Origin: Candidatus Latescibacterota bacterium
Lineage (GTDB): Bacteria; Krumholzibacteriota; Krumholzibacteriia; WVZY01
Assembly: GCA_020352495.1 (NCBI GenBank)
Contig: CP070677.1
Coordinates: 3,678,924 to 3,742,923, forward strand
DNA: 64,000 bases
Direction of reading: 5' to 3'
This document shows, in pieces, positions 2,793 to 47,850 of the stretch (positions are counted from its first letter, which is position 1; every line of letters begins with the position of its first letter). The notes beneath the pieces are model-generated. The model was not told the DNA's origin, ran no database searches, and saw only the letters and a list, made by a program, of their open reading frames with translations. Both the position numbers and the translations under genes were made by a program.

Positions 2793-2955
2793 GTGTCCCC
2801 TACCTGTAATGAGTAGCCAGCGGTTAATCGTCCACAATCTAACGGATACCCTCTGGGCTTGCAAGAATTATCCCATATCGTCGGTTTACCCGAAACAGAC
2901 GTGATCCCGTCGCATTTGAAAACGGTTCTGGAGCGCTCGTCACGCGTGCTGAGCG

Positions 2956-4547: not shown

Positions 4548-5231
4548 CTACTCGACAAAGAGCCATTTCAACCGGCCCAACGTAAAGTCCTCGGGAACCG
4601 AGAAATCGGATAGGTCATTCTCTGAGACAGACGATGATTGTATCGTGTCGTCATACAAATCGACGATCCGCCAGACCGTTTTACCCTGAGAGGATGTCGA
4701 GCGGATTACGACATCCATGGGGATAAGCAACGCTGTGTAATTCATCGAGCCCGCCTTGGCCAACAGATCGTATCGGACGTTTTTTTTGTACCATTTCTCA
4801 CCAGGAAACTGCAGCGTGTCCCGCGGAGCGATTTCGACCCACGCCGTGTCACCTGCTTGGTAATAAAACGACATGTCAATGCTGCTGATCGGGTCCACGC
4901 GGGGATGGCTATAACTCGGATCGAACATTTTGGCCGTGACGGTGATCTCGGCGGCTCGATCCCACCATTCGACACCGACGTAACCCATGTTGTAATCCCA
5001 GAGGCCGAAATGAAAGATGAAGTCATCATCGAGCAGTCTGTCGTACTCAACGACGTTCCGGTCATTGCAGGCGATTTCGAGATTGAGAAGTGTGTGGTCC
5101 TTTTGAGTGAGGTCTTTGTATCTGGATGGCCCGGGCTTGACCGAATCATCCGAATCATCACCACATCCTACCAGCCCGGCGGCAAGCAGCGCGGTTAGTA
5201 CGATAATACAGATTCTGCTGCTTATTATCAT
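4548..5231 (-). CDS. hypothetical lipoprotein, paralog 2 of tandem pair
   Basis: 227 aa; signal + lipobox (LLAAGLVGCGDD); shares YKDLT.KDH.L.NLE....N.V.YD.LLDDDFIFHF...WRI motif block with upstream paralog; start overlaps stop of 5228..5920 (ATGA). Confidence 0.7.
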   Translation of the reverse strand: MIISSRICIIVLTALLAAGLVGCGDDSDDSVKPGPSRYKDLTQKDHTLLNLEIACNDRNVVEYDRLLDDDFIFHFGLWDYNMGYVGVEWWDRAAEITVTAKMFDPSYSHPRVDPISSIDMSFYYQAGDTAWVEIAPRDTLQFPGEKWYKKNVRYDLLAKAGSMNYTALLIPMDVVIRSTSSQGKTVWRIVDLYDDTIQSSSVSENDLSDFSVPEDFTLGRLKWLFVE

Positions 5232-5920
5232 TCTCCGTAAAGCGCTTTCACACTACCCCATGTTGTTTCTTCCGTGGTGCGATCGAGAGCCCCGGGATCG
5301 GCTAGACGCGCAGCAACTTGGTACTCCGCGTCGTCGCGCCATGAGATGATTCGCCAGATCTGTTCGCCATTCACCTCGTCCATTCGCACCGTGAACGAAG
5401 CCAGGATATTTAGACCCGTGTAGTCAATAGGACCGGATGTGACGATCAGATCGTATCGTACCGTTTTCTCGTACCAGGTCTCGTTGGGATACGTTATCTG
5501 ATCCTCGGGTGTGACCTCAGTCCACCTGTCTTCACCAGCCACGTAGGTCAGTGTGAGATCGATCTTGCTCACCGGGTCGACACCCGGCTTGCTGAAATTG
5601 CGGTCAAATATGTTTTGTGCGGAAAAGATCTCGCGCGCTTTTTCCCACTGCTCGACCGGTACGCGTCCCTCCTGGTAGTCTGCCTGCGAGAAGTGAAAGA
5701 CAAAATCGGAATCCAGCAACATGTCGAACCGGACGAGGTTTCTCTCGATATAGGCCTTTTGCAAATTGAAAAGAACGTGATCCCTTTCGGTAAGGTCCTT
5801 GTATCCGGGAGGGTTTTTTATTGGCGGAATGATTGGGTCGGGCTCCCAGTGGTCGCTGCAGGAAACAACAAAGAGCCCCGCCAGGACAATGATCAGTGGG
5901 GGTACTCGTACGGCTTTCAT
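5228..5920 (-). CDS. hypothetical lipoprotein, paralog 1 of tandem pair
   Basis: 230 aa; signal + lipobox (LAGLFVVSCSD); GGGAGG RBS before ATG; clear paralogy with 4548..5231. Confidence 0.7.
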   Translation of the reverse strand: MKAVRVPPLIIVLAGLFVVSCSDHWEPDPIIPPIKNPPGYKDLTERDHVLFNLQKAYIERNLVRFDMLLDSDFVFHFSQADYQEGRVPVEQWEKAREIFSAQNIFDRNFSKPGVDPVSKIDLTLTYVAGEDRWTEVTPEDQITYPNETWYEKTVRYDLIVTSGPIDYTGLNILASFTVRMDEVNGEQIWRIISWRDDAEYQVAARLADPGALDRTTEETTWGSVKALYGE

Positions 5921-6075: not shown

Positions 6076-9000
6076 CTATTTTAGAAGCACCATCTTCTTG
6101 GTCTTGGAAAAGCCCTTCGCCACCATCATGTAGAAATACACACCACTCGAGAACGGCTCCCCCGTGTTGTTCGTTCCGTCCCACGTCGCCTTGAATCCTT
6201 CCACACGAGTAGTCTGCTCCTCGTTGACCAGTGTCTTTACGAGCTGCCCGGCGACATTGTAGATCTTGAGCGATACATGAGTCTGGTCTTGTATCCCATA
6301 ACGGATCGTTGTCACTGGGTTGAATGGATTCGGGTAGTTGTTGTCGAGATAATTCGCCAACTTTGGCGTTTGACCGATCCCCGTTGGCTCGGGGACCGCA
6401 TTATCCATCCAGAGAAGAATGTCACGTAGGTGGTCCACCCGATCCATCGGCACCCCCGGTCGATCGTCCCCAATAAAGTGATAACTGAATCCCGAGAGAA
6501 TCACACGGGCATCTTGATCGCCTGATTGCGGATCCTCGACGACCTGCGAGATCACGGCGGCACCCAAACCGGGAGCGTATGAGAGTTCGGTCACCGCCGC
6601 CCCTGTCGGCTGTAGCACGTCAAAATCATTGATCACCGGGCAACCGCCCCGGGCGACCAACGTGTCGGGACCAGCCACTAGATCGTCGAATGCCGAACCA
6701 AGTTCCGCGACGAGCAAAGGTGAGATTGCGATACCTTGATTCGTGTGATTACCCGAAACAAGTGTGAAGTTTATATAGGTGTTTCTCATGGCAACGGCGT
6801 TGGCCCCTGCGAGATTATCCCATTCGTACGCGACATCGTCCCCCGAGATGTAGACCCCGGCGTTGCCCGTCCGTTGTTCTAAGAATTGATGCAACGCACC
6901 AAAATCATCCGACTTCTCAGGACCGCTTCCCCCGTTTGGCGGGCTCCCGTCGCCAATCGTCCCCGATGCCAGATCGCCCGAACACCAGATGATTTTCTTA
7001 TAGACGGGGTCCGGATCACCAACGAGCTGGAGCTGGACGTTTTGCACGCGGGACGCCAGGCCGTTCCCAACCACAGACGACGGACCGATCACATCAAAGA
7101 TGTCCACATTCGATGTGAACGCCGTATAGAACGGACCCTTTTGCCGTTCACCCGTGAGGTTCATTAGACCCAAGTCTCCGAACGAAAGATCGAAATAGAC
7201 CTCCGCCGGGCCGCCTCGATCATCCGTGTCGTCGACAAGGAGAATGTCACCCTCGATTTCACGACCACTATCGGGGAGGATCATAAACTCACATGGTTCG
7301 TGGCACACCTCCTCCCAACTGAGCGTCTGGTGTTTCGCACCCTGACCAATACGATATGCCCTCTTGCGGTGCCAGTATGTCGGAAGACCACTGTTTGGCA
7401 CTGCTTCGAAGAAGTAGTAGATCGTATCCCCCGGTACAAAGGCACCGGTGTTGCCGGTCTGATCTTCTACCGTATGCAGACCGTTTGCGATATCCATCAG
7501 GTCGATGCAATACCGATCCGCCACCAACCCGCCGCCGGTGCTGTACACAAAGTCCATCTGGTACTGCCAGTAGGTCCATGGACCACACGCCCGAGTCTGA
7601 CCCGTAAAGGGGTAACGTAGTGTCCCGGTCATTGGATCGCCCGGATATCGTGTGTTGTCCGGTGACTCGATGCTTGTCGGAGTATGACCCGGTGTGCAAA
7701 GGTGTGACCCGACTCGGACCCAGCAGTACACCTGGGGCGGCACGCTCGGATCCGGATCCTCCGCCGGAGGATTGAGCGGCGTGTAGACAAAGCTCGGGTC
7801 ATCGACCTCGACCACCGCCGAGTCCCCAGGAATAATCGTCGGCATGGCGTTTGGCAGCATATCGAAGGCCATATCCGCACGCGCGTGGCTCTGGCACGTG
7901 ATATCACCATCTTCGGGGAAGTTGTCTTGAAACAGATCGAAGTGTCGGACAGACCACGCTGGCCCTTGCTTATCGACACGGACGAGTCTCACATCGTCTA
8001 GCAGCGGCGCTTGACTGTGACAATAGCCATATGTTCCTATTCCGCACCAGTATTCGCACATATCCCAAGCGCCCAGTGCGATCTGAACCATCTCTGCATC
8101 GGGGTCAATAAATCCGCCCACCTGGAACGTGACACGTTTCCAGTCCTTTTGACCGCCATAGTAGACAAAATTGTAATCACGCCACGGACCCGCGCATCCA
8201 TCCACCCAGGAACGAACGTGCCATACGTAAAAGATCATATAGTCCAGTGGGAGATCCCGATAGACATCAAACTCCAGGATTGCCTCCGACGCCGAGGCCG
8301 GTATGGGACTGCCATGAACATCTGTCGACCAGTCCAGTGGGGGGGACCAGATTTCGTTTTTCAGATAGAATCCGTTGCCCGGGGGATAAGGAACTACCAA
8401 TTGTTCGGGGTGACCGCCACAACCGTAGTAGAACGGTGACCCGTTGAAAAATCCCCAGAGACAATACTTCTTGAACTTGCACGGATCCTCTTGAAGCACA
8501 TTGGCACCGTGGTACAAACCGCAGTAATCCCCAAACCCCGACGGCACCGTGGCCATCCAGGTACCATCCGCTGTCACGGTGGCACCCACCGGTTCGTCCT
8601 CAAAATCCTGGTAGTCGATGACACCTGTGGCATCGGTGAGGGTCAACGCATCTATGATCACTGCGCCATCTGTCAGATGAAGGCCATCCTCGTCGGACCA
8701 CCCGCTGTCCGATTCGAACCGAAAACGCATGTGCAGATTATCGCCGATGTCGCTCGAACTCACGACGACGGTATCGGTCAGTTCGCCAATTCCATCGTAA
8801 AAACCGACTCCCCCATTGACGAGGGAGAGCGCTAGCCACCTATCGTAGTTGGTGTCCCAATAGTCGAGATACGTGCGGTCATACCCGGCTTCCGAATCCC
8901 ATCGGATCATGTACGAGACGATCACGTCACCAACCACAGGGATCCCGACACATTCGAAAAACTGTTCCCAGTTGTTTCCGTAACCGGGTAGATCGGTCCA

Positions 9001-9405
9001 ACGACAGTACGGGGATTCGGCAGAGGGTCTTGCGCCACACCAGAGCGACTTCTCCCCCTCGAGAGGAGTAAGCCGCCCAAAGTTCCCCCCATTCAAACCG
9101 GCAAAGTCATCGACGTGGAAGAACGTATCCAGTTGAGTGGTGCGATCGACACCAAACCACCCCTGTGCGTCGCATGTCAGGTCCTCATCTTCAAACGAAT
9201 ATTCGGCGAGGACATAGGTATCCGCCGGAGACGACGTAAAGAGTCCCTCCGGGTATGTTAACAGGCGACTGTCGATATCTGAGGGTGTTTCATAGACATG
9301 TCTCTCGACAGGAGGAGATTTGCCGACGTCGCGTTCGGCGAGAACACCTGGCGTCATCACCAGACACATCGTAACAACGATCCCGCGTAGCACTACCGTC
9401 TTCAT
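6076..9405 (-). CDS. large secreted protein with T9SS type-A C-terminal sorting domain (paralog C of three)
   Basis: 1109 aa; N-terminal signal peptide (MKTVVLRGIVVTMCLVMTPGVLA); C-terminus NYPNPFNPVTTIRYGIQDQTHVSLKIYNVAGQLVKTLVNEEQ...VYFYMMVAKGFSKTKKMVLLK; shares conserved N-terminal Cys-containing jelly-roll-like module and a ThuA/GATase1-like module with the two upstream paralogs; no HEXXH. Confidence 0.85.
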   Translation of the reverse strand: MKTVVLRGIVVTMCLVMTPGVLAERDVGKSPPVERHVYETPSDIDSRLLTYPEGLFTSSPADTYVLAEYSFEDEDLTCDAQGWFGVDRTTQLDTFFHVDDFAGLNGGNFGRLTPLEGEKSLWCGARPSAESPYCRWTDLPGYGNNWEQFFECVGIPVVGDVIVSYMIRWDSEAGYDRTYLDYWDTNYDRWLALSLVNGGVGFYDGIGELTDTVVVSSSDIGDNLHMRFRFESDSGWSDEDGLHLTDGAVIIDALTLTDATGVIDYQDFEDEPVGATVTADGTWMATVPSGFGDYCGLYHGANVLQEDPCKFKKYCLWGFFNGSPFYYGCGGHPEQLVVPYPPGNGFYLKNEIWSPPLDWSTDVHGSPIPASASEAILEFDVYRDLPLDYMIFYVWHVRSWVDGCAGPWRDYNFVYYGGQKDWKRVTFQVGGFIDPDAEMVQIALGAWDMCEYWCGIGTYGYCHSQAPLLDDVRLVRVDKQGPAWSVRHFDLFQDNFPEDGDITCQSHARADMAFDMLPNAMPTIIPGDSAVVEVDDPSFVYTPLNPPAEDPDPSVPPQVYCWVRVGSHLCTPGHTPTSIESPDNTRYPGDPMTGTLRYPFTGQTRACGPWTYWQYQMDFVYSTGGGLVADRYCIDLMDIANGLHTVEDQTGNTGAFVPGDTIYYFFEAVPNSGLPTYWHRKRAYRIGQGAKHQTLSWEEVCHEPCEFMILPDSGREIEGDILLVDDTDDRGGPAEVYFDLSFGDLGLMNLTGERQKGPFYTAFTSNVDIFDVIGPSSVVGNGLASRVQNVQLQLVGDPDPVYKKIIWCSGDLASGTIGDGSPPNGGSGPEKSDDFGALHQFLEQRTGNAGVYISGDDVAYEWDNLAGANAVAMRNTYINFTLVSGNHTNQGIAISPLLVAELGSAFDDLVAGPDTLVARGGCPVINDFDVLQPTGAAVTELSYAPGLGAAVISQVVEDPQSGDQDARVILSGFSYHFIGDDRPGVPMDRVDHLRDILLWMDNAVPEPTGIGQTPKLANYLDNNYPNPFNPVTTIRYGIQDQTHVSLKIYNVAGQLVKTLVNEEQTTRVEGFKATWDGTNNTGEPFSSGVYFYMMVAKGFSKTKKMVLLK

Positions 9406-9426
9406 CTTTCTCGCCCCCTCGGTCCC

Positions 9427-12400
9427 CTATTTGAGAAGGACCATTTTCTTTGTCTGGCTGAATCCCTTCGTCGTTAGCCTGTAGAAATACACGCCGCTCG
9501 AGACCGGCTCACCCGTGTTGTTTGTGCCATCCCACGTCGGTTTGAATCCGTCTGCGCGTGGTGTCTGCTCTTCGTCGACCAATGTCTTCACCAACTGCCC
9601 GGCGACATTGTAGATTTTCAAAGTCACGTGGCCGCGCTCCTCGATGCCGTAACGGATTGTCGTTACCGGGTTGAATGGATTCGGGTAGTTGTTGTCGAGA
9701 TAGTTCGCCAACCTTGGCGTTTGACCGATCTCCGTCGGTTCGGGGATCGCGTTGTCCATCCAAAGGAGGATGCCACGGAGATGGTCGACCCTGTCTATCG
9801 GTTGGCCGGACCGATCGTCATGGATGAAGTGAAAGCTGAATCCGGAGAGAATCACATGGGCGTCGGCATCTCCCGTTTGCGGATGCGGTGTCACCTGCGA
9901 GAGCACCGCTGCCCCCGATGCGTTTGGATAATTCATCTCCGCCACAGACGCGCCGGTGGCCTGCAACACGTCGAAATCGTTGATCGTCGGGCACCCGCCA
10001 TAGACATACAAAGAGTCAGGGCCGCCTACGGGATCATCAAAGATCGACCCCGGCTCTGCAATGAGCAATGGCGAAACCGGTTCACCGAGAGTGACATGCC
10101 GTCCCCTCACGACGTTGAAATTCATGTAATCGTTCTTGAGATCTAGCGCGCTGTTGTAGGCGTAGGCCAGCCACCATTCTGCTAAATCGTCCCCCGAAAG
10201 GTATACGCCGACGTGATTCGTTCGCAGTTCGAAAAACTCATAAAGCACGGCATAGTCATTCGACTTGTCGTTAAAACCAAACCCGGCGCCCAGACCACTG
10301 TACAGGTCCCCGGTGTTCCATATGATCTTGCGATAGTACGGCACGATCTGATCGGAGACGCTCTCCACTCTGCCGCCAACACTGTTGCCAACTTGCGACG
10401 AGGCGCCTCTCACATCGTACCGGTCGGGTTTGATTCCCAGGATGTCAAACGCCGTATCAAAGTACGGCTGTGCGCCTCGCTGGTCGCAGTCATCGACATA
10501 AAGAATGTCCGTGATTCCGGCAAGCGCATTGGCGGGGAGACATGTCATTTCCATGGGAGCCGACCGGACTCCCGGTTCCGAATCCGTGACACCAGTGAGA
10601 CGGCTCCAGTAGGTCGTGTTGCCCCCCAAATCCCGCGCCGAAAAGTAGAACCAGACCGTGTCACCCGGTGTGTAGAGGGTGTCGTTCAAGTCGGCACAGA
10701 ACTGACTGGCGACGGGATCTCCCGCCGTGTCGTAGACCGTGTCGAAACGAAGGACCGTCCAGCCTTCGCCTGTGGCGACAACGGGCCAGCGGCCAAGATC
10801 CTCCGATATCACCGTGCCGGACTTTCCAGGTGAGACATCCTTGACGTGGAGGTAGACAGCGGGACCACTCGCTGGTATCCCAGTGAAGTGATCGTCGAGC
10901 CCATAATTTGGCTCCGAAACAGTAACGACCGTCGAGTCCCCGGGTCGAATGTTCGGAACTGACGATGACAAGACATCCCGGGCCATATCAACCCTGACGG
11001 TCCCGGTCACGGTCCCGTCGGAGGCAAAGTTGTCCTGAAATAGGTGGAAGTCGCTCACCGACCATGTGGGCCCGCCAAGGTCGACACGGACTAGCCTGAC
11101 GTTGTCAAACAGGGGAGGATGACGGTGCCACACGGTACCGTAGATGCCACACCAATACTCGCACATATCTTTTGCGGATAGCGCAATCTGCACTTCCATC
11201 GCACCCGGCTCGACATAGCTCCCTATCGAGAATTTTCGGCGGATCCAGTCCTTCTGTCCCCCGTAATTCAGACGATTGTCGTTTAGCCAACGCCCCAGAC
11301 AATCAGTGACATGGGAGCGGACGTTCCAGATATAGAACATAAGTCCATCGAGTGGCAGATCGCGGTACGTATCGAACTCGAGAATCAACTCGGACGCGGT
11401 TGCCGGCACCGGATTCCCGTGGATGTCTTGCGACCAATCGATCCATGGCGACCAGATCTCGTTGTCGAGATACTGACCGTATTCATTCGGCCCATACGGT
11501 GGCACGGGTTGTTCCGGGTGTCCTGGGTAGTTGAAAGTTGACCCGTTGTAAAACATCCACATACACGATGTGCTGTATCGGCAGGGATCCTCCTGGAGTA
11601 CGGCCGCCCCGTGAATCAGCCCCGAGTAATCTCCAAATCCCGACGGCACGGTCGCGGCCCAATCCCCATCGCCGGTGGTCAAAGCACCAACCGCCTCGAA
11701 CTCGAAGTCCTGGTAGTCAACGGTGCCGGTGGCATCCATGACGGTAAGGCTATCGATGATCACCGCACCATCCGTCGGCCAAAGACCATCTTCATCGGAC
11801 CAGCTCGGGTCCGACCAAAACTTGAAACGGATCTTCAACGACCCGCCGGTCATCGCGGGATCCAAGACAAAAGACTCATCGAGCCCGCCGGTCCCGTCGT
11901 ATAACCCCAAGCCTCCGTTGACAGGCAGGTCGGTCCACGACTGGTATGGGTCATCCCAGTATTCCACGACGACATAGTCATAGCCCGGCTCGATATCCCA
12001 CCGGATCTTGTACGAGAGCACCGCATTCCCCACGACGGGGAATTCGACCGACTCGAAGTACTGGTGCCAAGAGTTGCCGTACCCGGGAGGGGTCTCCCAG
12101 TTGCAGTACGGTGAGTCCATTGTGGCCCTTACACCACACCACATGGATTGTTGACCTTCGAGAGGGGTCAAGCGCCCAAAGTCCCCGCCGTTCAACCCGG
12201 TAAAGTCATCGATATGGAAGAATGTGTCGAGCTGTGCGGTCCGATCGAAACTGATCCACCCCTGCGGATCACAGTTTCCGAATCCGTCGTCGAAAGAGAA
12301 CTCGGCAAGAACGTACGTATCGACTTGTGAGGAGACAAACGAGGCAGCAACTCGGGAGAGCGGTCGGTCACTCTTGTCGATGTGATCGACGGTGACCTTT

Positions 12401-12498
12401 CTCTGTTGAGCGTTGTGCTTTCCGCCGTCGCGCGCCCACAATCCAGAGGCCGACGCAATCATCAACACCGTGAGAACAATGCCAAATGTTTTTTTCAC
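9427..12498 (-). CDS. large secreted protein with T9SS type-A C-terminal sorting domain (paralog B); GTG start
   Basis: 1023 aa; signal MKKTFGIVLTVLMIASASGLWA; CTD ...PNPFNPVTTIRYGIEERGHVTLKIYNVAGQLVKTLVDEEQ...TKKMVLLK; 21-nt spacer with GGGAGGGG RBS to upstream gene. Confidence 0.85.
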   Translation of the reverse strand: MKKTFGIVLTVLMIASASGLWARDGGKHNAQQRKVTVDHIDKSDRPLSRVAASFVSSQVDTYVLAEFSFDDGFGNCDPQGWISFDRTAQLDTFFHIDDFTGLNGGDFGRLTPLEGQQSMWCGVRATMDSPYCNWETPPGYGNSWHQYFESVEFPVVGNAVLSYKIRWDIEPGYDYVVVEYWDDPYQSWTDLPVNGGLGLYDGTGGLDESFVLDPAMTGGSLKIRFKFWSDPSWSDEDGLWPTDGAVIIDSLTVMDATGTVDYQDFEFEAVGALTTGDGDWAATVPSGFGDYSGLIHGAAVLQEDPCRYSTSCMWMFYNGSTFNYPGHPEQPVPPYGPNEYGQYLDNEIWSPWIDWSQDIHGNPVPATASELILEFDTYRDLPLDGLMFYIWNVRSHVTDCLGRWLNDNRLNYGGQKDWIRRKFSIGSYVEPGAMEVQIALSAKDMCEYWCGIYGTVWHRHPPLFDNVRLVRVDLGGPTWSVSDFHLFQDNFASDGTVTGTVRVDMARDVLSSSVPNIRPGDSTVVTVSEPNYGLDDHFTGIPASGPAVYLHVKDVSPGKSGTVISEDLGRWPVVATGEGWTVLRFDTVYDTAGDPVASQFCADLNDTLYTPGDTVWFYFSARDLGGNTTYWSRLTGVTDSEPGVRSAPMEMTCLPANALAGITDILYVDDCDQRGAQPYFDTAFDILGIKPDRYDVRGASSQVGNSVGGRVESVSDQIVPYYRKIIWNTGDLYSGLGAGFGFNDKSNDYAVLYEFFELRTNHVGVYLSGDDLAEWWLAYAYNSALDLKNDYMNFNVVRGRHVTLGEPVSPLLIAEPGSIFDDPVGGPDSLYVYGGCPTINDFDVLQATGASVAEMNYPNASGAAVLSQVTPHPQTGDADAHVILSGFSFHFIHDDRSGQPIDRVDHLRGILLWMDNAIPEPTEIGQTPRLANYLDNNYPNPFNPVTTIRYGIEERGHVTLKIYNVAGQLVKTLVDEEQTPRADGFKPTWDGTNNTGEPVSSGVYFYRLTTKGFSQTKKMVLLK

Positions 12499-12521
12499 AA
12501 CCCTGCCCCTCCCTAAGATCT

Positions 12522-15500
12522 CTATTTTAAGAGGACCATTTTCTTTGTGTGTGCGAACCCCTCCGTCGCAAGTTTATAAAAATACACACCGCTCGAGACC
12601 GGCTCACCGGCGTTGTTTGTGCCGTCCCAGGTCGCTTTGAATCCGTCTCGGCGAGGTGCTGCCTGCTCTTCGTCGACCAATGTTTTCACCAACTGACCGG
12701 CGACATTGTAGATTTTCAAAGACACATGACCGCGCTCCTCAATGCCGTAACGAATCGTCGTCACCGGATTAAAAGGATTGGGATAGTTGTCATCGAGGTA
12801 ATTCACCAGCTTTGGCGTTTGGTCGATCCCCGTCGGTTCGGGGATCGCATTATCCATCCAGAGGAGTATGTCACGGAGATGATCCACACGATCCATCGGC
12901 TGTCCGGTTCGATCGTCGCTGATATAATGATAACTGAACCCCGAGAGAATCACATGCGCATCGGCGTCCTGCAATTGCGGATGAGGTGTCAGTTGTGAGA
13001 GCACCGCGGCGCCCGATCCGTTGGGAAAATTGATTTCTGCCACAGACGCCCCGGTGACTTGCAACACATCGAAGTCGTTGATCGTCGGGCACCCGCCGTA
13101 GACATGCATCGAGTCCGGGCCGCCCACGGGATCATCAAAGATCGATCCCGGCTCGGCAACGAGCAACGGCGAGACAGGCTCACCGAGAGCGACATGCCGT
13201 CCCCATGCGACGCCGAAATTCATGTAGTCGTTTCGGAAGTCAGCCGCGCTACCGCCCGCATAAACCCAGTAATCGGAAACATCGTCACCCGACAGGTATA
13301 CGCCGACGTGATCTGTCCTCTGTTCGAAAAACTGATGGAGCATCGCAAAATCATCCGCCTTTTCGTTCTCGAACCCGCCACCTGGGGCGATGTGGAGGTT
13401 TCCCGTATTCCAGATGATCTTCCGATAATATGGAACGATCTGTTGCGAGACGTCCGAAACCCGTCCGCCGGGGCCAACGCTCAGGTCGTATGCAGGACTC
13501 CGCACATCGTAGCGGTCGGGCTTGATTCCAAGGATGTCATACGCCGTATCAAAGTACGGCTGCACACCGTGCTGGTCGCAGTCATCGACATAAAGAATGT
13601 CGGTGATCCCGGCGAGCGCATTGGCGGGAAGACACGTCATCTCCATCGGTGCCGCCCTCACCGCTGCCTCCGAGTGTGACGCGCCCGTGAAACGGCTCCA
13701 GTAGGTTGTGTTGCCTACAAAGTCCCGGGCCGAAAAGTAGAACCAGATCGTATCCCCCGGCGTGTAGAGACTGTCATTCAGATCGGCACAGAACTGATTG
13801 TCTACGGGGTCTCCCGACGTGTCGTAGACAGTGTCACAACGAAGAACCGTCCATCCGCCACCCGCGGAGGCAACAGGCCACCGCGCAACATCCCCCGAAA
13901 TCGCGGCACCGGATTTCGTCGGAGAAACGTCCTTAACATGAAGGTAGACCGCGGGACCACTTCCCGGAATCCCCGTGGAGTGGTAGTCGAGACCATAGTT
14001 CGGCTCTGAGACGGTAACAACCGTCGAGTCTCCCGGCAGAATATTGGGATTTGAATTCGACAGAACATCCAATGCCATGTCCACACGGGCGGTTCCCGTC
14101 ACCGTCCCGTCCGAGGCGAAATTGTCCTGAAAGAGATCGATATCCCGTACCGACCACACCGGGCCGCCAAAATCGACCCGGAGGAGCCGAACATTATCGA
14201 GAAGCGGGGCGTGATGATGGCAGTTGAATTCCGCGTAGACCCCACACCAGTACTCGCACATATCCCAACAGCCAATCGCGATCTGTACCTGCGACGCCCC
14301 GGGTTCGATATGACTACCGACCGACAACGTCCTCTGGTACCAATCCAATTGCCCACCGTAGTACACAAAGTTGTCGTCCCTCCAGTACCCGACACAGTCA
14401 CCGACATGTGAGCGGACGTGCCAGATATAAAACACGAGTCCATTGAGTGGCAAACCCCGATAGGTATCGAATTCGAGAACAACCTTCGATGCGGAAGCCG
14501 GCACCGGGTTGCCGTCAATATCGTGCGTAAAATCGATCCACGGTGACCAGACCTCGTTTGTGAGGTACTGAGCGTATTCGTCCGGCCCGTACGGCGGCAC
14601 GAGCTGTTCGGGGTGCGGCGTACAGAAACCCGTATCCGGCGACCCGTTGAAAAATGTCCAGAAGCACGATATGTTGTACCGACACGGGTCCTCTTGGACA
14701 ACCTCTGTGCCGTGCAAGAGCCCCGCATAATCGCCAAACCCGGGATTCACAGAGGCAGACCAATCGCCATCCGAAGTGGCCAACGCCCCAACGGATTCGG
14801 ACTCGAAGTCCTGATAGTCCACCGTCCCCGTCGCATCCATGATCGTGAGACTATCGATAATCACCGCTCCATCGGTTGGCCAGAGACCGTCTTCGTCTGA
14901 CCAACCCGAATCCGAATAGAAATGAAATCGGAGCTTGAGTGAACCTCCGGTCGCGGCGGAGTCGATGACGACAGACTCGCTTAGCTCACCGATCCCGTCG
15001 TAGTCACCCGCACCTCCGTTCACGGGGAGATCCGACCATTCCGAAGAAACCTCATCCCAGTATTCGAGATATACGAAATCGTATCCCGGTTCGGTATCCC
15101 AACGGATCTTGTACGAGCACACCGCATCACCAACAACTGCGAACTCGGTGGACTCAAAGAACTGTTGCCACTGGTTTCCATAGCCCGGGGGTGTCTCCCA
15201 GTTGCAGTACGGCGAGCCTTCCGTTCTTGCGCCGCACCACAGTGACTTCTGACCCTCGAGAGGAGTCAACCGTCCGTAGTCCCCACCATTCAAACCGGCA
15301 AAATCATCGACATGGAAAAACGTGTCGATCTGCGTAGTAGCATCGACCGTGACCCACCCCTGTGGATCGCAAAGACCGAATTCGTCGTCAAAAGAGAACT
15401 CGGCAAGAACGTACGTATCGATCTGTGCGGAAACAAACGTGGCTTCGACTCTCGATGGCGGCCGATCGCTTTGGCTACCGAGAACGGTGGGGACCCTTCT

Positions 15501-15596
15501 CGACTGGGTGGTGTGCTTGTCAGCAACACGCGCCATCAACCCCGATGCCGTCGCCAGCACAACAACGGCGACAATAACACCAGATGTTTTTTTCAT
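12522..15596 (-). CDS. large secreted protein with T9SS type-A C-terminal sorting domain (paralog A)
   Basis: ORF 12522..15728 but it overlaps the upstream gene; likely start at MKKTSGVIVAVVVLATASG (15596), leaving a 23-nt spacer; CTD ends ...FAHTKKMVLLK; about 60-70% identity by eye to neighbours over long blocks (DTYVLAEFSFDD, WSDEDGLWPTDGAVIIDSLT, CLPANALAGITDILYVDDCDQ). Confidence 0.85.
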   Translation of the reverse strand: MKKTSGVIVAVVVLATASGLMARVADKHTTQSRRVPTVLGSQSDRPPSRVEATFVSAQIDTYVLAEFSFDDEFGLCDPQGWVTVDATTQIDTFFHVDDFAGLNGGDYGRLTPLEGQKSLWCGARTEGSPYCNWETPPGYGNQWQQFFESTEFAVVGDAVCSYKIRWDTEPGYDFVYLEYWDEVSSEWSDLPVNGGAGDYDGIGELSESVVIDSAATGGSLKLRFHFYSDSGWSDEDGLWPTDGAVIIDSLTIMDATGTVDYQDFESESVGALATSDGDWSASVNPGFGDYAGLLHGTEVVQEDPCRYNISCFWTFFNGSPDTGFCTPHPEQLVPPYGPDEYAQYLTNEVWSPWIDFTHDIDGNPVPASASKVVLEFDTYRGLPLNGLVFYIWHVRSHVGDCVGYWRDDNFVYYGGQLDWYQRTLSVGSHIEPGASQVQIAIGCWDMCEYWCGVYAEFNCHHHAPLLDNVRLLRVDFGGPVWSVRDIDLFQDNFASDGTVTGTARVDMALDVLSNSNPNILPGDSTVVTVSEPNYGLDYHSTGIPGSGPAVYLHVKDVSPTKSGAAISGDVARWPVASAGGGWTVLRCDTVYDTSGDPVDNQFCADLNDSLYTPGDTIWFYFSARDFVGNTTYWSRFTGASHSEAAVRAAPMEMTCLPANALAGITDILYVDDCDQHGVQPYFDTAYDILGIKPDRYDVRSPAYDLSVGPGGRVSDVSQQIVPYYRKIIWNTGNLHIAPGGGFENEKADDFAMLHQFFEQRTDHVGVYLSGDDVSDYWVYAGGSAADFRNDYMNFGVAWGRHVALGEPVSPLLVAEPGSIFDDPVGGPDSMHVYGGCPTINDFDVLQVTGASVAEINFPNGSGAAVLSQLTPHPQLQDADAHVILSGFSYHYISDDRTGQPMDRVDHLRDILLWMDNAIPEPTGIDQTPKLVNYLDDNYPNPFNPVTTIRYGIEERGHVSLKIYNVAGQLVKTLVDEEQAAPRRDGFKATWDGTNNAGEPVSSGVYFYKLATEGFAHTKKMVLLK

Positions 15597-15619
15597 AGCC
15601 CTTGCCCCTTTTTTGGATC

Positions 15620-18600
15620 CTACTTCAAAAGGACCATTTTCTTTGTCTGCGTGAACCCCTTTGTTGTGAGCTTGTAGAAATACACGCCGCTGGCAACCGG
15701 TTCGCCGTTCGAATTCGACCCGTTCCAATGCGCTTCAAAACGTCCTGCAGGACGCGACCTATCGACGAGCACTCGGACCAGCTCTCCCCGTACGTTGTAA
15801 ACAGCGAGACGCACATGCGAACGCTCGGGAAGCTCGTATCGGATGGTCGTCACCGGGTTAAACGGATTTGGATGATTCTGATAAAGCACATACCGGTCGG
15901 GGAGCTTCGGGAACATCGCCGGCATCCCCGTCGGAATGGTTTTGAAGTCGATGATGTCCCCATTTTCCGACCAGGTGAGTACCCGACTATTCATAAAACG
16001 GTCGAAGAGAAACCTTACCTCCTCCCCTGGCTCCGGACCCTCATCCTCCGGTGTAAACGGATCGTCCCGGTACACGGGCATGATCCCAAAGCACCCTTCC
16101 TCTGTGACCACAAACTCACCACAGATCACACTGTCCTCGTCAATCGCCTGGACCAACGTTCCAACGGATATCAACGAGCCATCGATGACGACACTATCGC
16201 CCCACAAATTCACCCACTCGGTGGTTGGCGTGACCGTTACAGGACCACTGGGGACTTGAGCGTCTGACGTCGTAAACGGGGGATCGGATGGATACGCGGG
16301 GAGACCTGGGTACGTGAGTGTTCCGGCCGTGTTGACCTTGAGCCAGTACCCGTGACCCGGTGTCATCGTGATAAGCGTATTCTGCCCCGGCGGCCCCGAA
16401 GGATCAAAGGTGAGATAGTCATTTCCATCGTGTCCGAGAACGAGATCGGTCGTGGACAACACGGTCTCCAGGGCATGCGCGACCGAGTCTTCCTGGTACG
16501 GGACATAGCCAATCAGATTGTAACCGCTCGACAGGGCCACCGGACTCTGCGAGGCAATCGCATCACCGGCAAGTGAGAGCGTGTCATCCTGTGACATCTT
16601 GACCCACACCCCATCTGCGTGGTCGACATCGAAAAGCGTCTGGAACTCGGGTGCGAGAGACGGCGCAAAGGCACGCCCGCCCGTGTCGAATCCATGCGCC
16701 ACGATCACATTTTCGATTATGGGAGCGAGAATCGATGCGACCGAATCGTTGCCGACGTCGGCATTCCAGCTCAATAGATTCCACCCGGTCTCGAGCGGTA
16801 GCACGACGGTCCGCGTGAGCGCGGAGTCGACATCGAGAGTTACGGGTACCGTCACAAACCCTTGTGTGGGGACATTGCTTTGGATGCCCACATACCCTTC
16901 ATATGTGCCCGGCTCGAGTAAGGACGCATCGATTGTGACCGCCAATTCGATCGTGCTGCCTGGATCAAGCGTCCCGACGAGCGGTGACGCGGTTAGCCAG
17001 TCGATCGGAATACCCGTTGAGATCCATATTTCATCCCACCACGCCTCGGAACCCGCGGTGAAGTTGTAAAGATCCAAACGGTAGACGTCTTCCACCAGAG
17101 CGGCATTTCGGAACGGAATGCCGCTCTGGATCAAGTTGCCCCCGACATAATAATCAAACGTCTTGGCGGTGAAATCGATGTTGTTGAATTCGATGTGATA
17201 CCACGTGTCGGCGGTGTAGACAAACGACTCACTGCCGCCGACATCCACGTTGACATAAAAGGTGCTGTCTTGTTTGGCAAAGAACCAGATGACTTCCCGT
17301 CCCTGACTGTCGCGGAACACAAAGTATGCGTCGTTCGTCGTTGTCGATCCGGATCGGATCCAAAAGCTTATCGTTCGAAGCTGGACGGCTCCGAACTCGC
17401 GGTAGATCCCATCAAAATGCCCGACTCCCGAGTTGAACTCGTGATAACTCATGACGCTACCGTCGGCCGCTGTTTGATCGGTTACCTCTTTGGTGCCCGT
17501 GCCACCGCCATCGAACCATCCGTCGTAGTCCCCATCCTCGAAGTTCTCCAAGAATGCGAGGCTCGAGTCGAACGGCGATGACAAGATCGGGCGTATCCCG
17601 GAGAGCGGTCTTATGTGTCCGGCGGTTTCATACGGTTCCAACTGCGACACCGACCCCGACGATGTCAAGAATCCACCGAAGACGTCCGATCGATATCCAA
17701 CACGACCTTGCGAGCGATCGGCCATTTCCACCGTGCCAACCGGACTCGGATTACTTCCGGCAGTTCCGAAAACATAGATCCGATACTCGAGCACCGATCC
17801 CCCGGGATTGGATAGATCGAGCGGTCTCAACGACGCCTCGCCTGGTAGGAGCGTTTCATAAATCGAGTCAGGTAACACGGCCACGATCGGTGGCTCCACA
17901 CCCACACCCTCGAGGTCCACGGTAACGATATTCTCGTCCGGATCATTGCTCTCGAGTGTCAATGTTCCCGAGATCGATCCCGACACCAAAGGAGCAAAGG
18001 TCACCGTCACATCCCTCGTCCATCCCGGAGGAATATTCAGTTCGGTCGAGTCGGCGGAGAAGCTCGGGTTGTCGATGCTGATCGAACTCACGATCAGTGT
18101 CGCATTACCCTCATTCGAAACGGTGAGCGTTTGATCGTCCGAGAGACCAACAAACAACGAGTCGTAAACAAGCACGGTGTCCGAGAGCAAAATGTCCGCA
18201 GCCGGCATGACTTCGAGATGAAGTGGAACGATAGCCACCACGCTGTCCCAGGCGGTGCTTCTAATGGCGATTTCGGCGTCGAATTCATCTTCCGGCAAAT
18301 TCGTCGCGTCGAATGTGACATCGATCTGCTCGCTCTGCCCGACCGGAATGCTCCCCGAGTCCGGCAGAGCCCACACCCAGCCAATCCCCGGTGTGAGCCA
18401 TTCCATCGCTTGTTCGCCAAATCGCTGGTTATCGGCTAATAGCAGATAGTCATCCCCAAAAAGCTCCTCGGCCGTGGCGATGATCTTCCCGTCGCCCGCG
18501 ACACTCGCCGCGACCACCGGTGTGTTGTTGATATCCCCGATGAGAAGCGTTGCCGGTTCCATTACCGCAGAGAGGTGGGCATGTGGACCCGGGAGTTCAA

Positions 18601-21046
18601 TTGTGTTGACGCCAAAGGTTGTCTCGTGGGGGTAGATGTTCGATGTGGTGCCCGCAGTCGAGCCTCCCGTATCGTACACGATTCCCGCGCCGAGCTGGCC
18701 GAGGAGATCGTTGTAGCTCCCGATCCCCGGTTGCTGATCGCCAGTGAGAAACAATCCGCCGCCACCAAGGACCCAATCGGCCAAGGTGTTTCTCTCCGCG
18801 GCGGTGAACTCTGAGGTCATCTCGACCGTCCAGAAGATGTCATAGTCGGCGAGAAGCGTGGGTGTAATCGAAGACGAGCTCTCGACAAATGTCGCACCGA
18901 GATCGATAAGACCGGCGACAAAGATACTCCGGTTGCTCGAGTCGTGCTGACCGTGCGAAAGATCATAGATAATTCTCACGCCTGTGAGATCACTCGACGA
19001 AAACGGCCCAAAATCGCCGGGACCGAGGCGAATGGGGTCAGCAGAATAGAACGCGTCCTCCTCGGTCCCAGTCGGAAAAGCGTGACGGCGAGTGCCAAAC
19101 ATACTCGCAGGTGAGCCTCCGCCATCGGAACGGCGTCTGACCTTTAACGTCCAGTCAAACGCCGACTGCCCGAGATTCTCGATCGTCAAAACTTGAGTGG
19201 AGACCTCACCGGTGTAGAGACTCTCACTCAGTGAATCCGGTGTTACCGTGATATTGACCGGTTCCCTACCCTCACCTTCCAACGACACAAAGACCGAGTC
19301 CTCGTCGGGGTCATTGCTAATGATCGTCATAGTCCCGGTGATGATGCCCTCGACACTTGGCGCAAACGTCACGACAAGTGGCCAGCTTCCTCCCGGCTCG
19401 ACATCAAAGAGTGTGTCACTCGGCGTGAAATCCGGCTGGTCGACTTCAACGGCCACGTGGAGTGTGTCCGCGCCCACATTGGAAACGGTCAACGTGTCAT
19501 CGACCGAGTCCCCCACGGCAACAAGACCAAACGACATCACCGTGTCCGACACGGCAATGAGCGGCACGGCGGTAACAAACAGTCGGAGTGGAACGAGGAT
19601 CTCCGGTTCGGACGGATGATTCGTGACGACACGTGCCGTGTCTTCGTAGTTGCCTCCCAGTCCCGCCGCGTCGAACTCGATCTCGACAACCGCGCCGTAA
19701 CCCGGGTTGAACACACCCGTATCCGGATTGGCGCTCACCCACGGTTCGGTTGTGTTGACACCCCACGAAAGCGTCATGCCGCCGATATTTGTTATCGTGA
19801 GATTCTGCGACGATGTCTGACCCGTGTATAGCGAATCGATCAGCGAGTCCGGTGCCACCTCGATGTTCGGCGGTGGTGAGACAAACCACCGTGCAAACTT
19901 CAAAGACGTCTTGCCCCCCGCGAGGTCAAAATCACCCCCGGCAAACACCTCTCCCGTTGCGCTGGGAGACGCGGCAAATGTCCACCCCGACCCACTGCTA
20001 AAACCCAAACCGCTCCCAAATGTCGACCACTGCGACCCGTCCCATTTCGCAATCCGGTTCGCTGATATCCCCCCTGCCGACGTGAAGTTTCCGGCGATAT
20101 AAACATCGGTACCCAACGACACAACCGACATCACTCGTTCGTTTGCTCCGCCATCTAGATTGTCCCAACTCGACCCGTCCCACTTGGCCACGTTTGTGAC
20201 GGTCACAAAATCCTGTGTGAAATTGAAAAGCCCCCCCACATAGAGATCGGTCCCCACGAGGGCCATCGAACGCAACTCACCGTTAAAGAACGCATCCAAT
20301 GCCGACCAGTTGGTTCCATCCCAGCGGGCCAGACTTAACGCGGGCACACCCCCCGCCGCGGTGAAAAGGCCACCGACGTATAGCTGGCTAGCGTCTGCCG
20401 CCATGGCGTCCCCAAAACCGGTCGCGAAGCCAGGGTGTGTCAGTCCGCCATTGAGACTGTTCCAACCTGCCCCATCCCAACGGGCGATTCCGTTCACTGT
20501 GATGCCGTCGGCCTTCTCGAACGATCCGGACACATAGACATCTCCGTCAAAGACCTCGAGATCGTCCACAGGGGGAACGGTGTGGTAGTCACTGAGACCG
20601 GTCCCCATCGCATGCCACTGGAGTCCATCCCACATGGCGACGTGCTGGCAGGGGACACCTCCTGCGTTGACGAACGACCCGCCGATATAAACGTTGCCTT
20701 CATGGACGAGAATCGCACGAACCTCGGCCGAGGCGCCCGATACGCCGCTCCCCATTGCATACCACTGGGTCCCGTCCCATCTGGCGATGCCGTTGACCGT
20801 CAGGCCACCGGCGTGTTGGAACTGCCCGCCGACATAGACATCGGCGCCGTCGACCACGATCGCTTCGACGCGTCCGCTGAGTCCCAGCGCATTGAAGCGC
20901 GGGTCCCAGAAGACATCATCGGGATCGTTGAGGGATTCCAGGACGACTTTCTCGGAGGTTGAGGAGATGTCGGGGGGATTCTGAAAAACAACCGCGAGAC
21001 AAAAAAAGACAAAGAGGGACAGACGTAGTATCAGCCGGCGTTCCAT
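15620..21046 (-). CDS. giant secreted multi-domain protein: beta-propeller repeats + repeated Ig-like (ASH/CARDB-like) domains + ThuA/GATase1-like module + T9SS C-terminal sorting domain
   Basis: 1808 aa; signal [21 protein letters not shown]; about 7 repeats of IARWDG.xW..LG.G....V.A....G..LYVGG.F..AGG; several LTV/ITN.G...L repeats ([23 protein letters not shown]..., [23 protein letters not shown]...); CTD [41 protein letters not shown]...[22 protein letters not shown]. Confidence 0.85.
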   Translation of the reverse strand: [1808 protein letters not shown]

Positions 21047-21740
21047 GTTGCCTGCCTTTCACGGGAGAGGGAAGCTCACTTCTAAACCCGTCTATGCAGG
21101 GTGCGTTGCCACGGCTGCAGGGGTATACTACTCAATGGCAGTATATTATACCATATTTCGACGCGAATTTACAGCCCTAAAGAGAACGGTCGCACCGTCT
21201 CCAGCCACTTCGAGATCGGACTCTCTATTCCGTGACAGGATCCGTTACGACGCGTTGTTTTGAGAGATCCCTGGATCATTCACGGGCCGTCAGGCCGCCT
21301 CGAGGTCGAATCCGCACTTCCCAAAAACCAACTGGCAAAACAAAGAAACGAGCGACCGTCGCTCTCGGTGCCCTGGCTCTCGGAACCCGAATTGGCCAAT
21401 TCCAGCCAGAGCGGGGTAAGGGATTCCCTTACACGCCCCTACGGGAGTCCCTTACCCCAGCCGCCAAAAAGCCAATTGCCTGCTACCCCAAACCGCGCCC
21501 GCCTCACGACATTTGAAAGCGTTAAATTCAAGGCTGGGTCTGCCAATTCGGACCCAGAAACACACGTGGCGAGATGCTCATAAATTGTGTATTGAAAAAG
21601 AGATAAGCCATTTTTGAAACACATGCTTCCGGGGGACGCGGCATCCCCTACGGCATCTTCTCGACCGACCGGGGCCCGTGGCATCCCGATTGCCTTGCAT
21701 GTCGTCAGAGCGACAGATCAGACCTAAGAGGACCAATGAC

Positions 21741-22142
21741 ATGTCCAAAACACGCACATCAACCACATCCCTTGCCCTGGTGGCTCTTCTGGCAGCTATC
21801 GTGTTGACCGGCTGTGCCGGTTCAGACACGTTGCTCGGTCCCGACCCAAACGCCGCCGCGGTGACTGTCGACTGGGCGTGGGAAGAGTGTCCGGGGTGGG
21901 AGGAGGCATGTGACCAAGGTCGTCAAGAGATATGTTTCCAGTGTCCGCCAGATGCCGATTGGAAAAACCCGGGACAATACAATTCCTGTATAAGGAAGGC
22001 TTTGAGACAGTACCTGCAAGAACTGAGTGACTGTTTCTCGAACGAAGAATTAGACACACTCCGTGATTGTATATTGGACGAGAACTGGGAATCCATTGGA
22101 GACCAGGAGGTGAATCGAAAACAAAAGTTCCGCGATGAGTAA
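21741..22142 (+). CDS. small Cys-rich secreted lipoprotein (hypothetical)
   Basis: ORF 21678..22142; likely start MSKTRT with AAGAGGACC RBS; signal + lipobox LAAIVLTGCAGS; 8+ Cys incl. ICFQCPPDADW...YNSCI. Confidence 0.5.
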   Translation: MSKTRTSTTSLALVALLAAIVLTGCAGSDTLLGPDPNAAAVTVDWAWEECPGWEEACDQGRQEICFQCPPDADWKNPGQYNSCIRKALRQYLQELSDCFSNEELDTLRDCILDENWESIGDQEVNRKQKFRDE

Positions 22143-22167
22143 CTGCCGGAGGCAGACATTCGCAGAG

Positions 22168-22208
22168 CCGTCAGGTCTGGATCGCGGGCCCAGGCCTGAC
22201 GGTTTTTT
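22168..22208 (+). terminator. rho-independent terminator
   Basis: 13-bp stem CCGTCAGGTCTGG/CCAGGCCTGACGG (one G.U) with 8-nt loop followed by TTTTTTT; 26 nt after stop at 22142. Confidence 0.6.
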
Positions 22209-22396
22209 TGCCCGAAGTCGATGACTCCCACGGGTTGGCCGGCCGCTGACGAATTCCGCTTTGCGTTCAATGGAGATCGCGTCCAAAAAATTCCGGCGCC
22301 GTTTGCCCGCCGCAGGTATTCTGCTATATTTGAATCGTAAGGCTCTCGCCGGCCGGAAGGCCGGAGGTTGACACCAATCTGAGCAAAGTGGCGTGT

Positions 22397-22499
22397 TGTC
22401 GGGACTGGGAGTTGGTGTCGACGCGACTTCCGCAGCGCGCGCTTCTTTACCCGCGCGTGCAAGGACCAGGAGCGGAGAGACCAACTCCCAGTCCCGACA
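22397..22499 (+). repeat. structured intergenic element, copy D (candidate ncRNA/hairpin repeat family)
   Basis: perfect 20-bp outer inverted repeat TGTCGGGACTGGGAGTTGGT/ACCAACTCCCAGTCCCGACA enclosing GACTTCCGCAGCGCGCG-loop-CGCGCGTGCAAGGACCAGGAGCGG, homologous to cores of copies A-C. Confidence 0.5.
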
Positions 22500-22518
22500 T
22501 TCACAAACGTGGTATGGC

Positions 22519-22824
22519 ATGAGAACGTTAACCTCCATCTCGACCGTTCTCGCGATCCTAGCCTCGTTGCTTCTCCAAGGGTGCATTCTGGGCGACGACG
22601 AGGGGATTGTGTCGGGCATGGGAACCATAACATTCCTCGATTTCGAGGGAGGATTCTACGGGATTGAGGCCGACAACGGCGACCATTTCGATCCGGTCAA
22701 CCTCGAACCGGAGTTCCAAGTCGACGGTTTGCGTGTGAAGTTCAGGGGTAGGATCATCGAAGGCGCCAGCACCCACATGTGGGGCAGGCTGTTAGAACTG
22801 AAGATGATCAAAAGACTCGAGTAA
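22519..22824 (+). CDS. small lipoprotein (hypothetical)
   Basis: ORF 22393..22824; likely start MRTLTSISTVLAILASLLLQGC (lipobox) 20 nt after element D; about 101 aa. Confidence 0.5.
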   Translation: MRTLTSISTVLAILASLLLQGCILGDDEGIVSGMGTITFLDFEGGFYGIEADNGDHFDPVNLEPEFQVDGLRVKFRGRIIEGASTHMWGRLLELKMIKRLE

Positions 22825-26694: not shown

Positions 26695-26924
26695 CTGGAT
26701 CACTGAGGGGTAGACCAATAGCTGTGAAAGGCAATCGGGTCAAGATCCTTCTTTTACAGGGGTCGGGAGAATCAGGCTGGTCAATTCCTCTCCAAATCCA
26801 CTTACTTAATGATACGTCGCAACTTATGAAAAGTCAACAGGTATGCGACTTGGTCGTTTGACAAGGGCGTCGGGACCCGAGATCTAACACAGGGCACGAC
26901 GGGTATTCCGAATCGTCGCCGACA

Positions 26925-34220: not shown

Positions 34221-34269
34221 CCTTTCGTGTATGATTGGATGCCTTTGATTATAAAAACGGTCCCCTTTG

Positions 34270-35160: not shown

Positions 35161-35348
35161 GGTACGGCAAACCCATTAGCAGGAGTTATCGACAACATAA
35201 ATATAATAAATTTTGCTTATCATACGATCAGTGCTACGTTTTGTCAAGATCGGTGGCCGAAAAATCCGACGCCGGGGATCCCCCCGCCAGTAAGAGTGGT
35301 ACGGAATTCGTCGAGTGAATCGGCAAACCCTCAGGGGGTGCAGCGGTA

Positions 35349-47764: not shown

Positions 47765-47788
47765 CCGCGCAACTCCGCGCCACCACCC

Positions 47789-47813: not shown

Positions 47814-47850
47814 CGCGCGACCAGTAGTCTGAAACCAAAGAAGATTCGAC

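Follow-up and report, generated by a model that had tools for sequence, protein, structure and literature searches.

A tightly packed run of four very large genes lies on the minus strand of a 64,000-nucleotide stretch of contig CP070677.1 (hereafter the window) from Candidatus Latescibacterota bacterium, and it raises the question of what these four proteins do outside the cell and whether they work as a single unit. The original prediction, made from the letters of this DNA, was of four co-transcribed type IX secretion system (T9SS) cargo proteins that might constitute an undescribed extracellular machine. We give about an even chance to the reading that the products of the four genes, here called A to D, are exported by the T9SS and displayed on the cell surface as binding or scaffold proteins without catalytic activity. 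Proteins B, C and D are members of a large family built from two cassettes, and these are most likely reusable accessory modules and not parts of a dedicated four-subunit machine. The genes, their spacers and the upstream signal are as follows.

21145..21153, minus strand: candidate extended -10 box TGGTATAAT, some 100 nt upstream from where gene A starts, read from the sequence
15620..21046, minus strand: gene A, open reading frame (ORF) of 1808 amino acids (aa), ATG start; deposited as 'choice-of-anchor D domain-containing protein', 100% match to P0265
15597..15619, minus strand: A-B spacer, 23 nt, with the Shine-Dalgarno (SD)-like run AAGGGGCAAGGG
12522..15596, minus strand: gene B, ORF of 1024 aa, ATG start; same length as deposited protein P0002; C-terminal domain (CTD) at 12525..12785
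12499..12521, minus strand: B-C spacer, 23 nt, TAGGGAGGGGCAGGG
9427..12498, minus strand: gene C, ORF of 1023 aa, GTG start; the protein used for modelling
9406..9426, minus strand: C-D spacer, 21 nt, GAGGGGGCGAGAAAG
6076..9405, minus strand: gene D, ORF of 1109 aa, ATG start; CTD at 6079..6336

The ORF calls separate the four genes by 23, 23 and 21 nt, in agreement with the 21–23 nt originally reported. A purine-rich, SD-like run is present in each of the three spacers (A-B, B-C and C-D), although the GGGAGG-type ribosome-binding site that had been ascribed to every spacer occurs literally only in B-C, while A-B and C-D read AAGGGGCAAGGG and GAGGGGGCGAG. Protein lengths of 1808, 1023 and 1109 aa are as first given, but the gene listed at 1068 aa was an over-extended ORF; that version takes the maximal ORF, which opens with a TTG at 15728, and it overlaps the CTD-coding end of gene A. 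We place the start of gene B at the ATG at 15596 (MKKTSG...), since this is the only start that fits the 23-nt spacer and matches the deposited 1024-aa P0002; it parallels the start of gene C (MKKTFG). The encoded proteins show 100% identity to database entries of a Candidatus Latescibacterota metagenome-assembled genome. A consensus scan of the cluster found no promoter or terminator between genes A to D, and together with the shared strand, the short spacers and their SD-like runs this agrees with the tightly packed, operon-like layout that had been described. Co-transcription of the four genes is likely, judging from the sequence.

The non-coding stretch upstream of gene A measures approximately 690 nt and extends to a divergent plus-strand lipoprotein gene. 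The TGGTATAAT box in this region is a possible promoter element, and a second copy is found upstream of the lipoprotein gene at 5228..5920. Neither gene A nor the lipoprotein genes showed a convincing sigma-54 promoter upstream; the only match upstream of gene A scores 8/11, with 30 such matches in the window, and was rejected. The gap between gene D and the next downstream gene is 155 nt, and a candidate intrinsic terminator after gene D was likewise discarded, its fold being no better than that of shuffled sequence (z = +1.0). A sigma-54-dependent activator (AAA+ and Fis-type helix-turn-helix) is encoded at 3083..4498 on the plus strand, convergent with the cluster.

All four proteins carry the type-A T9SS CTD that had been proposed for them: A, B, C and D match TIGR04183 at 35.1–40.6 bits in the NCBIfam search (cut-off 23), in each case at the very end of the protein, and TKKMVLLK forms the last residues of all four, as noted originally. 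PF18962 is matched at 26.4–29.9 bits, with B, C and D above the cut-off of 27 and A slightly under it. The CTDs of genes A and C are placed as follows.

15623..15871, minus strand: T9SS type-A CTD of gene A; TIGR04183 35.1 bits against a cut-off of 23
9430..9693 (aa 936-1023), minus strand: T9SS type-A CTD of gene C; TIGR04183 40.6 bits, PF18962 29.9 bits

These four CTDs are the only ones in the window. The CTD is also the best-conserved domain of the B/C/D family (about 50 aligned homologs), and tails of the NYPNPFNP...KMVLLK type are common to many proteins across the phyla of the Fibrobacteres-Chlorobi-Bacteroidetes (FCB) group, of which Latescibacterota is a member. One source describes the T9SS as specific to the FCB group (PMC12398890). 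An N-terminal signal peptide, in which a basic n-region and a hydrophobic core are combined with an A-x-A-like site, is seen by inspection in all four proteins, as had been predicted, and in the model of protein C a helix spans residues 2-23 and is followed by a disordered linker. Among other contigs, L004-L082 encode NYPNPFNP...KMVLLK CTDs with 44–57% identity to that of gene C, and their hosts are Zixibacteria, Cloacimonadota, Gemmatimonadota, Ignavibacteria, Marinimicrobia, KSB1, Calditrichia, Fibrobacteres and Bacteroidota metagenome-assembled genomes.

Proteins B, C and D have at least 420 full-length homologs, all of about 1000–1050 aa, and the named homologs among those matches are from Latescibacterota or Krumholzibacteria only. 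Each of the 120 listed matches covers 92–100% of the query at 43–74% identity, and the non-CTD part matches 882 representative clusters (50% identity). None of 48 members has a significant match to a Pfam family other than three CTD families, and the roughly 900 non-CTD residues of the family matched no Pfam or NCBIfam model. Searches of PDB sequences with profiles of the whole family and of its C-terminal module gave only CTD or FlgD matches, or noise. A contig scan with the full-length alignment was dominated by the CTD motif NxPNPFNPxT, and the sole true relative was in L003, at 26% identity. Relatives in the databases are sometimes named 'FlgD immunoglobulin-like domain containing protein'. 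An AlphaFold2 model of protein C, built on 50 homologs, has a mean predicted local distance difference test score (pLDDT) of 84.2 and a predicted template modelling score of 0.68, and divides the protein ahead of its CTD as follows, with Ig standing for immunoglobulin and CBM for carbohydrate-binding module.

aa 1-23: signal peptide, by inspection and model
aa 24-57: disordered linker, from the model
11074..12327 (aa 58-475), minus strand: two MAM/CBM-like jelly rolls, with conserved C121, C132, C306, C400, C446 and C450
10534..11073 (aa 476-655), minus strand: two all-beta Ig-like sandwiches, from the secondary structure of the model
9754..10521 (aa 660-915), minus strand: GATase1-like alpha/beta domain, with the elbow S-G-D (G769, D770)
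aa 916-935: flexible linker, with low pLDDT at 923-929

The Cys-containing N-terminal module described in the original prediction is real, and its fold is that of a MAM/CBM-like jelly roll; a Cys/His-rich motif, DMCxxWCG...CHSH, lies in the jelly-roll region of protein C. As modelled, the order in B, C and D is a signal peptide, two jelly rolls forming a 'head', two Ig-like domains, a Cys-less GATase1-like 'base', and the CTD.

The base had been described as a ThuA/class-I-amidotransferase-like module, and the fold is indeed shared, but there is no match to a GATase family in any of the 48 members and the catalytic Cys is absent. The nucleophile elbow in protein C reads S-G769-D770, with no Cys; the canonical Cys-His-Glu triad is missing, and H890, which occupies the His position of the triad, shows only 80% conservation. 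Searches for membership of the ThuA, DUF4350 and GATase1_like families (PF06283, PF14258 and PF07090) gave no significant match for B, C or D. HExxH is absent from all four proteins, and Pfam, NCBIfam and motif scans of A to D and the 48 family members revealed no known catalytic motif, both as first reported.

If export follows the T9SS of Bacteroidota, Sec would take the four proteins across the inner membrane, they would fold in the periplasm, and the CTD would bring them to the T9SS translocon. By the same analogy, a PorU-type sortase would cut off the CTD, and the proteins would either be released or be fixed on the outer face of the outer membrane. The point of attachment would then lie at the C-terminal end, so that the GATase1-like base would be membrane-proximal and the N-terminal head would face outward. 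Under the binding or scaffold reading, the proteins would be lectin- or adhesin-like, probably with polysaccharides or other polymers as ligands, and tandem paralogs would add variety.

B, C and D are paralogs, as had been recognised, with 74% aa identity between B and C and about 53% for B-D and C-D. In a simple neighbor-joining tree that includes homologs of other loci, the three group as one clade, and they therefore originated by local tandem duplication. A further paralog of this genome is P0003. Synonymous divergence (dS) among the three ranges from 0.68 to saturated, and the ratio of nonsynonymous to synonymous divergence (dN/dS) is 0.06–0.29; these tandem paralogs are old and subject to purifying selection, and the same ratios rule out decaying duplicates. 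The 3' ends had been thought very similar at the nucleotide level and to indicate recent duplication or gene conversion. The best windows there reach 74–83% identity compared with 61–76% elsewhere, so the ends are more alike, albeit only modestly. The proposed recent event does not survive the dS of at least 0.68 to saturated, nor the finding that no nucleotide tract among the three genes exceeds 83% identity. The CTD-coding ends of C and its neighbours are a little less diverged synonymously (dS 0.68 and 1.06), which could reflect old conversion or sequence constraint, and not a recent exchange. Gene D is the divergent member, with several short insertions, and the Ig-like region is the part that differs most between D and B/C (39–48% identity).

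Gene A is a one-off mosaic T9SS cargo unrelated to B, C and D. Ahead of its CTD the following segments were recognised.

19877..20914 (aa ~45-390), minus strand: beta-propeller of Rax2/DUF5122-type repeats; PF12768 52 bits, PF17164
19271..19579 (aa 490-592), minus strand: choice-of-anchor D/HYDIN-type Ig domain; PF22544 131 bits
18407..18979 (aa ~690-880), minus strand: GATase1-like (DUF4350/ThuA/GIFT-type) module
17900..18193 (aa 952-1049), minus strand: second copy of the choice-of-anchor D Ig domain
16874..17374 (aa 1225-1391), minus strand: ConA-like/LamG and BACON-type Ig domains; PF13385 weak, PF19190 46 bits

Protein A belongs to the choice-of-anchor D group, matching NF012200 at 109.8 bits (cut-off 45) in two stretches. 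No full-length homolog was found; other than P0265, matches cover just 15–30% of the protein, and these fall on the propeller, the only part with many homologs. By BLAST and hhalign, the CTD is the only segment that A has in common with B/C/D. A module related to the base of B/C/D had been reported in protein A, and there is a resemblance at the level of fold, but no detectable sequence homology: hhalign comparisons of the B/C/D domain profiles and the C-terminal module profile with gene A are non-significant (E 0.08-0.6). The best of these non-significant matches for the C-terminal module falls on the DUF4350 region of gene A, where the DUF4350 match is itself below threshold (28.2 bits against 30.4). 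In L001 a family member is preceded by two beta-helix/BACON T9SS cargo genes, to which residues 866-1387 of protein A are 35% identical.

Is the four-gene arrangement found elsewhere? In about 18 loci with enough flanking sequence for comparison, family members are mostly single genes in unrelated neighbourhoods, some of them adjoining extracytoplasmic function sigma/anti-sigma or AraC regulators. About five loci have from two to five or more tandem paralogs. Those of L083 and L084 are positional orthologs, spaced by roughly 90–270 nt or overlapping by 4 nt. Segments like those of gene A lie beside a family member in two of the approximately 18 long loci, and no conserved partner gene of the family emerged across the loci compared. 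The notion of an undescribed extracellular machine is therefore not borne out by conservation, as gene A is without a full-length homolog and relatives of the others are mostly singletons or paralog-only arrays. In L001, which is a related metagenome contig, a three-gene T9SS cargo island (two beta-helix/BACON genes and one family member) sits between Pyr_redox_2 and DUF72. The backbone of Thy1, M50/CBS, Pyr_redox_2, DUF72 and FIST at L001 1..15207 is syntenic with window positions 46820..52808, where it is uninterrupted, and the insertion argues that cargo clusters are variable islands.

Two paralogous lipoproteins of about 230 aa are encoded downstream of gene D, at 4548..5231 and 5228..5920 on the minus strand; they are 39–41% identical, their genes overlap by 4 nt, and neither matches a known family. 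As candidate conserved partners they were rejected, being absent from the other loci searched (87 loci). They might be co-transcribed with gene D, as no clear terminator lies between.

The family's domains are instead reused in other company. In the CTD proteins P0223, P0228, P0236, P0250, P0233 and P0248, the MAM head occurs by itself, joined to right-handed beta-helix/NosD bodies. The base together with the second jelly roll (N2) and both Ig-like domains (N2-Ig-Ig-GATase1-like) follows an intact peptidase of matrixin type (HEIGHFLGLDH) and a GEVED domain in P0152, and follows LVIVD propellers in P0128 and P0155. Complete family bodies are preceded by an SBBP propeller in P0127 and followed by a Kelch propeller in P0123. 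Fusion of head or base to peptidase, beta-helix and propeller domains indicates that the cassettes behave as accessory modules. In P0152, a metagenomic protein of 1254 aa, the matrixin peptidase and GEVED domain stand in place of most of the first jelly roll (N1), although its first strands (LLAEYTF..CD..GW) are kept; this arrangement suggests nesting of N1 inside the second jelly roll or a strand swap between the two.

Several observations weigh against a binding or scaffold role. All domains of the family are conserved to a uniform and fairly high degree (43% mean column identity), and the GATase1-like domain has the invariant polar residues D669, D692, D695, Q717, Y722, D770, H801, C836, D843, D894, R903 and H906; such conservation looks more like that of an enzyme or a constrained assembly than of a diversifying adhesin. 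Ligand binding by A to D is putative, and so is the co-transcription of the four genes, which is deduced from their spacing. In addition, none of the T9SS core genes (SprA/Sov, PorV, PorU, GldK/L/M/N or PorK/L/M/N) is found within the 64-kb window. The B/C/D family could be a new class of secreted enzyme with a repurposed site on the divergent GATase1-like domain, which we regard as unlikely though a serious contender. Such a site might comprise Asp770 with His801, Cys836 and His906, or the Cys/His-rich motif of the second jelly roll, and the MAM/CBM-like domains would bring the enzyme to a polymer substrate. Many invariant polar residues of the C-terminal module, including an invariant Cys and near-invariant His residues, would fit this idea, as would the strong and uniform purifying selection and a domain order (CBM-like, Ig-like, alpha/beta) that resembles carbohydrate-active enzymes. 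It is harder to square with a base that has no Cys-His-Glu triad, a Gly-Asp elbow and an incompletely conserved H890, or with the failure of Pfam, NCBIfam and PDB sequence searches to find an enzyme family. The closest folds (ThuA-like, GATase1_like, the GIFT domain and GH42 domain B) are moreover, as far as is known, mostly non-catalytic, and in P0152 the base cassette sits behind a bona fide metallopeptidase, as accessory modules do. We consider the fuller version slightly less probable still, namely an unrecognised T9SS-secreted enzyme class in which an Asp/His/Cys site has replaced the Cys nucleophile and the MAM/CBM-like domains guide it to extracellular polymers. If it were true, the expansion in tandem arrays would reflect substrate diversification in Latescibacterota and Krumholzibacteria.

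Alternatively, A to D could assemble into one extracellular structure, be it a surface coat, an S-layer-like lattice or a hetero-oligomer, with the GATase1-like domains as oligomerisation modules. Domain B, which is GATase1-like, mediates trimerisation in GH42 beta-galactosidases, and the S-layer of Tannerella forsythia is made from two co-transcribed large T9SS cargo proteins, TfsA and TfsB. A tight operon would favour stoichiometric co-expression, and a GATase1-like module and a CTD anchor are present in all four proteins. These precedents notwithstanding, we think a joint structure improbable: gene A is without a full-length homolog and A-like segments recur at only two of about 18 long loci, a family member typically stands alone among unrelated genes with no conserved partner, and the arrays found elsewhere are paralog-only and differently spaced (roughly 90–270 nt, or a 4-nt overlap). 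There is also only a slim chance that the CTDs are FlgD-Ig-like folds that no T9SS uses here, and that the proteins are periplasmic or otherwise exported. PF13860 (FlgD_ig) does score as well as PF18962, some relatives bear the FlgD name in databases, the window has no T9SS core gene, and our literature search found no paper on these proteins or documenting a T9SS in Latescibacterota. On the other side, TIGR04183 gives 35–41 bits where the trusted cut-off is 23, the tail invariably forms the very end of the protein and is better conserved than any other part in about 50 aligned homologs, its type is widespread across FCB phyla, and Latescibacterota belongs to the very group to which the T9SS is described as restricted (PMC12398890). 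Gene layout, CTDs, paralogy, folds, selection and modular reuse are observed here; T9SS export in the source organism, surface attachment and ligand binding belong to the interpretation that we prefer, that of non-catalytic binding or scaffold proteins.

That T9SS cargo genes form clusters in FCB bacteria is well known, and the deposited entries were already annotated with the CTD and the choice-of-anchor D domain. What is new is a fold-level account of a large unmodelled family and the modularity of its cassettes. The locus is of an ordinary kind that holds an unstudied protein family, and no novel type of system emerges from it. Latescibacterota and Krumholzibacteria, two uncultured phyla of sediment and soil, are thought to live on complex polymers, and to our knowledge their surface proteomes are essentially unannotated. 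The family numbers about 880 clusters, often with several copies per genome, yet Pfam and NCBIfam miss some 900 residues of each protein. Its architecture and reused cassettes offer a starting point for annotating secreted 'dark' proteins and for choosing targets for expression or screening.

Other genes in the window include further secreted or lipoprotein products. At 945..2864 on the minus strand, a lipoprotein-like ORF of 639 aa has an LSSC lipobox, an IPT/TIG-like N-terminus and an HEFEH zincin motif with no Pfam or NCBIfam match, and from these features may be an unmodelled secreted metallopeptidase. The 1089-aa product of 23449..26718 (minus strand) has Peptidase_MA_2 (HEYAH), TolB-like PD40 propeller repeats and a long C-terminal part resembling an outer-membrane barrel. 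Two small lipoprotein genes on the plus strand (21738..22142 and 22513..22824, with LTGC and LQGC lipoboxes) diverge from the cluster, and the 236-aa ORF at 21923..22633 on the minus strand that overlaps both is probably spurious. Genes at 33369..37259 encode myo-inositol-1-phosphate synthase and an inositol monophosphatase on either side of a LysR regulator, a possible pathway for inositol, or for an inositol lipid or solute.

Among known systems, the closest in overall plan are the type-A T9SS cargo proteins of Bacteroidota such as the gingipains RgpB, Kgp and HagA of Porphyromonas gingivalis, which like A to D have a signal peptide, a beta-rich multi-domain body and a CTD of about 80 aa. 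The proteins described here differ in coming from Latescibacterota, where export by a T9SS is putative, in having no peptidase or other catalytic domain, and, for B/C/D, in an order of two MAM, two Ig and one GATase1-like domain that fits no Pfam or NCBIfam model. TfsA and TfsB are likewise large, beta-rich T9SS cargo from adjacent co-transcribed genes and are exposed on the cell surface, a likeness by description only. NF052323, the 'T9SS-dependent M6-like inactivated metalloprotease' of about 1043 aa, is similar in length, type-A CTD and M6/MAM flavour, but only the CTD aligns (profile positions 960-1032) and the scores of 23–29 bits are far from the cut-off of 600, so that these proteins are not members. 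The MAM-like domain is shared, at fold level only, with immune inhibitor A (peptidase M6; PDB 4yu5/4yu6), meprins and receptor tyrosine phosphatases; the MAM Pfam match of a family protein is below cut-off (16.9 bits against 26.9), and B, C and D have neither a zincin catalytic domain nor HExxH. The surface glycan-binding protein (SGBP) SGBP-B of Bacteroides (PDB 7kwb) is a non-catalytic surface protein of several beta-sandwich domains, as B/C/D are predicted to be (Foldseek E 1e-5), although SGBPs are lipoproteins of SusC/D loci and not T9SS cargo, and no SusC/D is found at the A-D locus. The GATase1-like fold of the base is shared with PF07090-type proteins (PDB 2gk3, 3rht), ThuA-like proteins (4jqs, 1t0b, 4e5v) and DUF4350, and its superfamily relatives include the GIFT domain of IFT52, OST48 and GldG and domain B of GH42, all of them without a proven amidotransferase role. 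B, C and D match none of the members compared at the level of sequence; their module adjoins a T9SS CTD and would be extracellular, and it has an invariant set of its own, with the SGD elbow, H801, C836 and H906.

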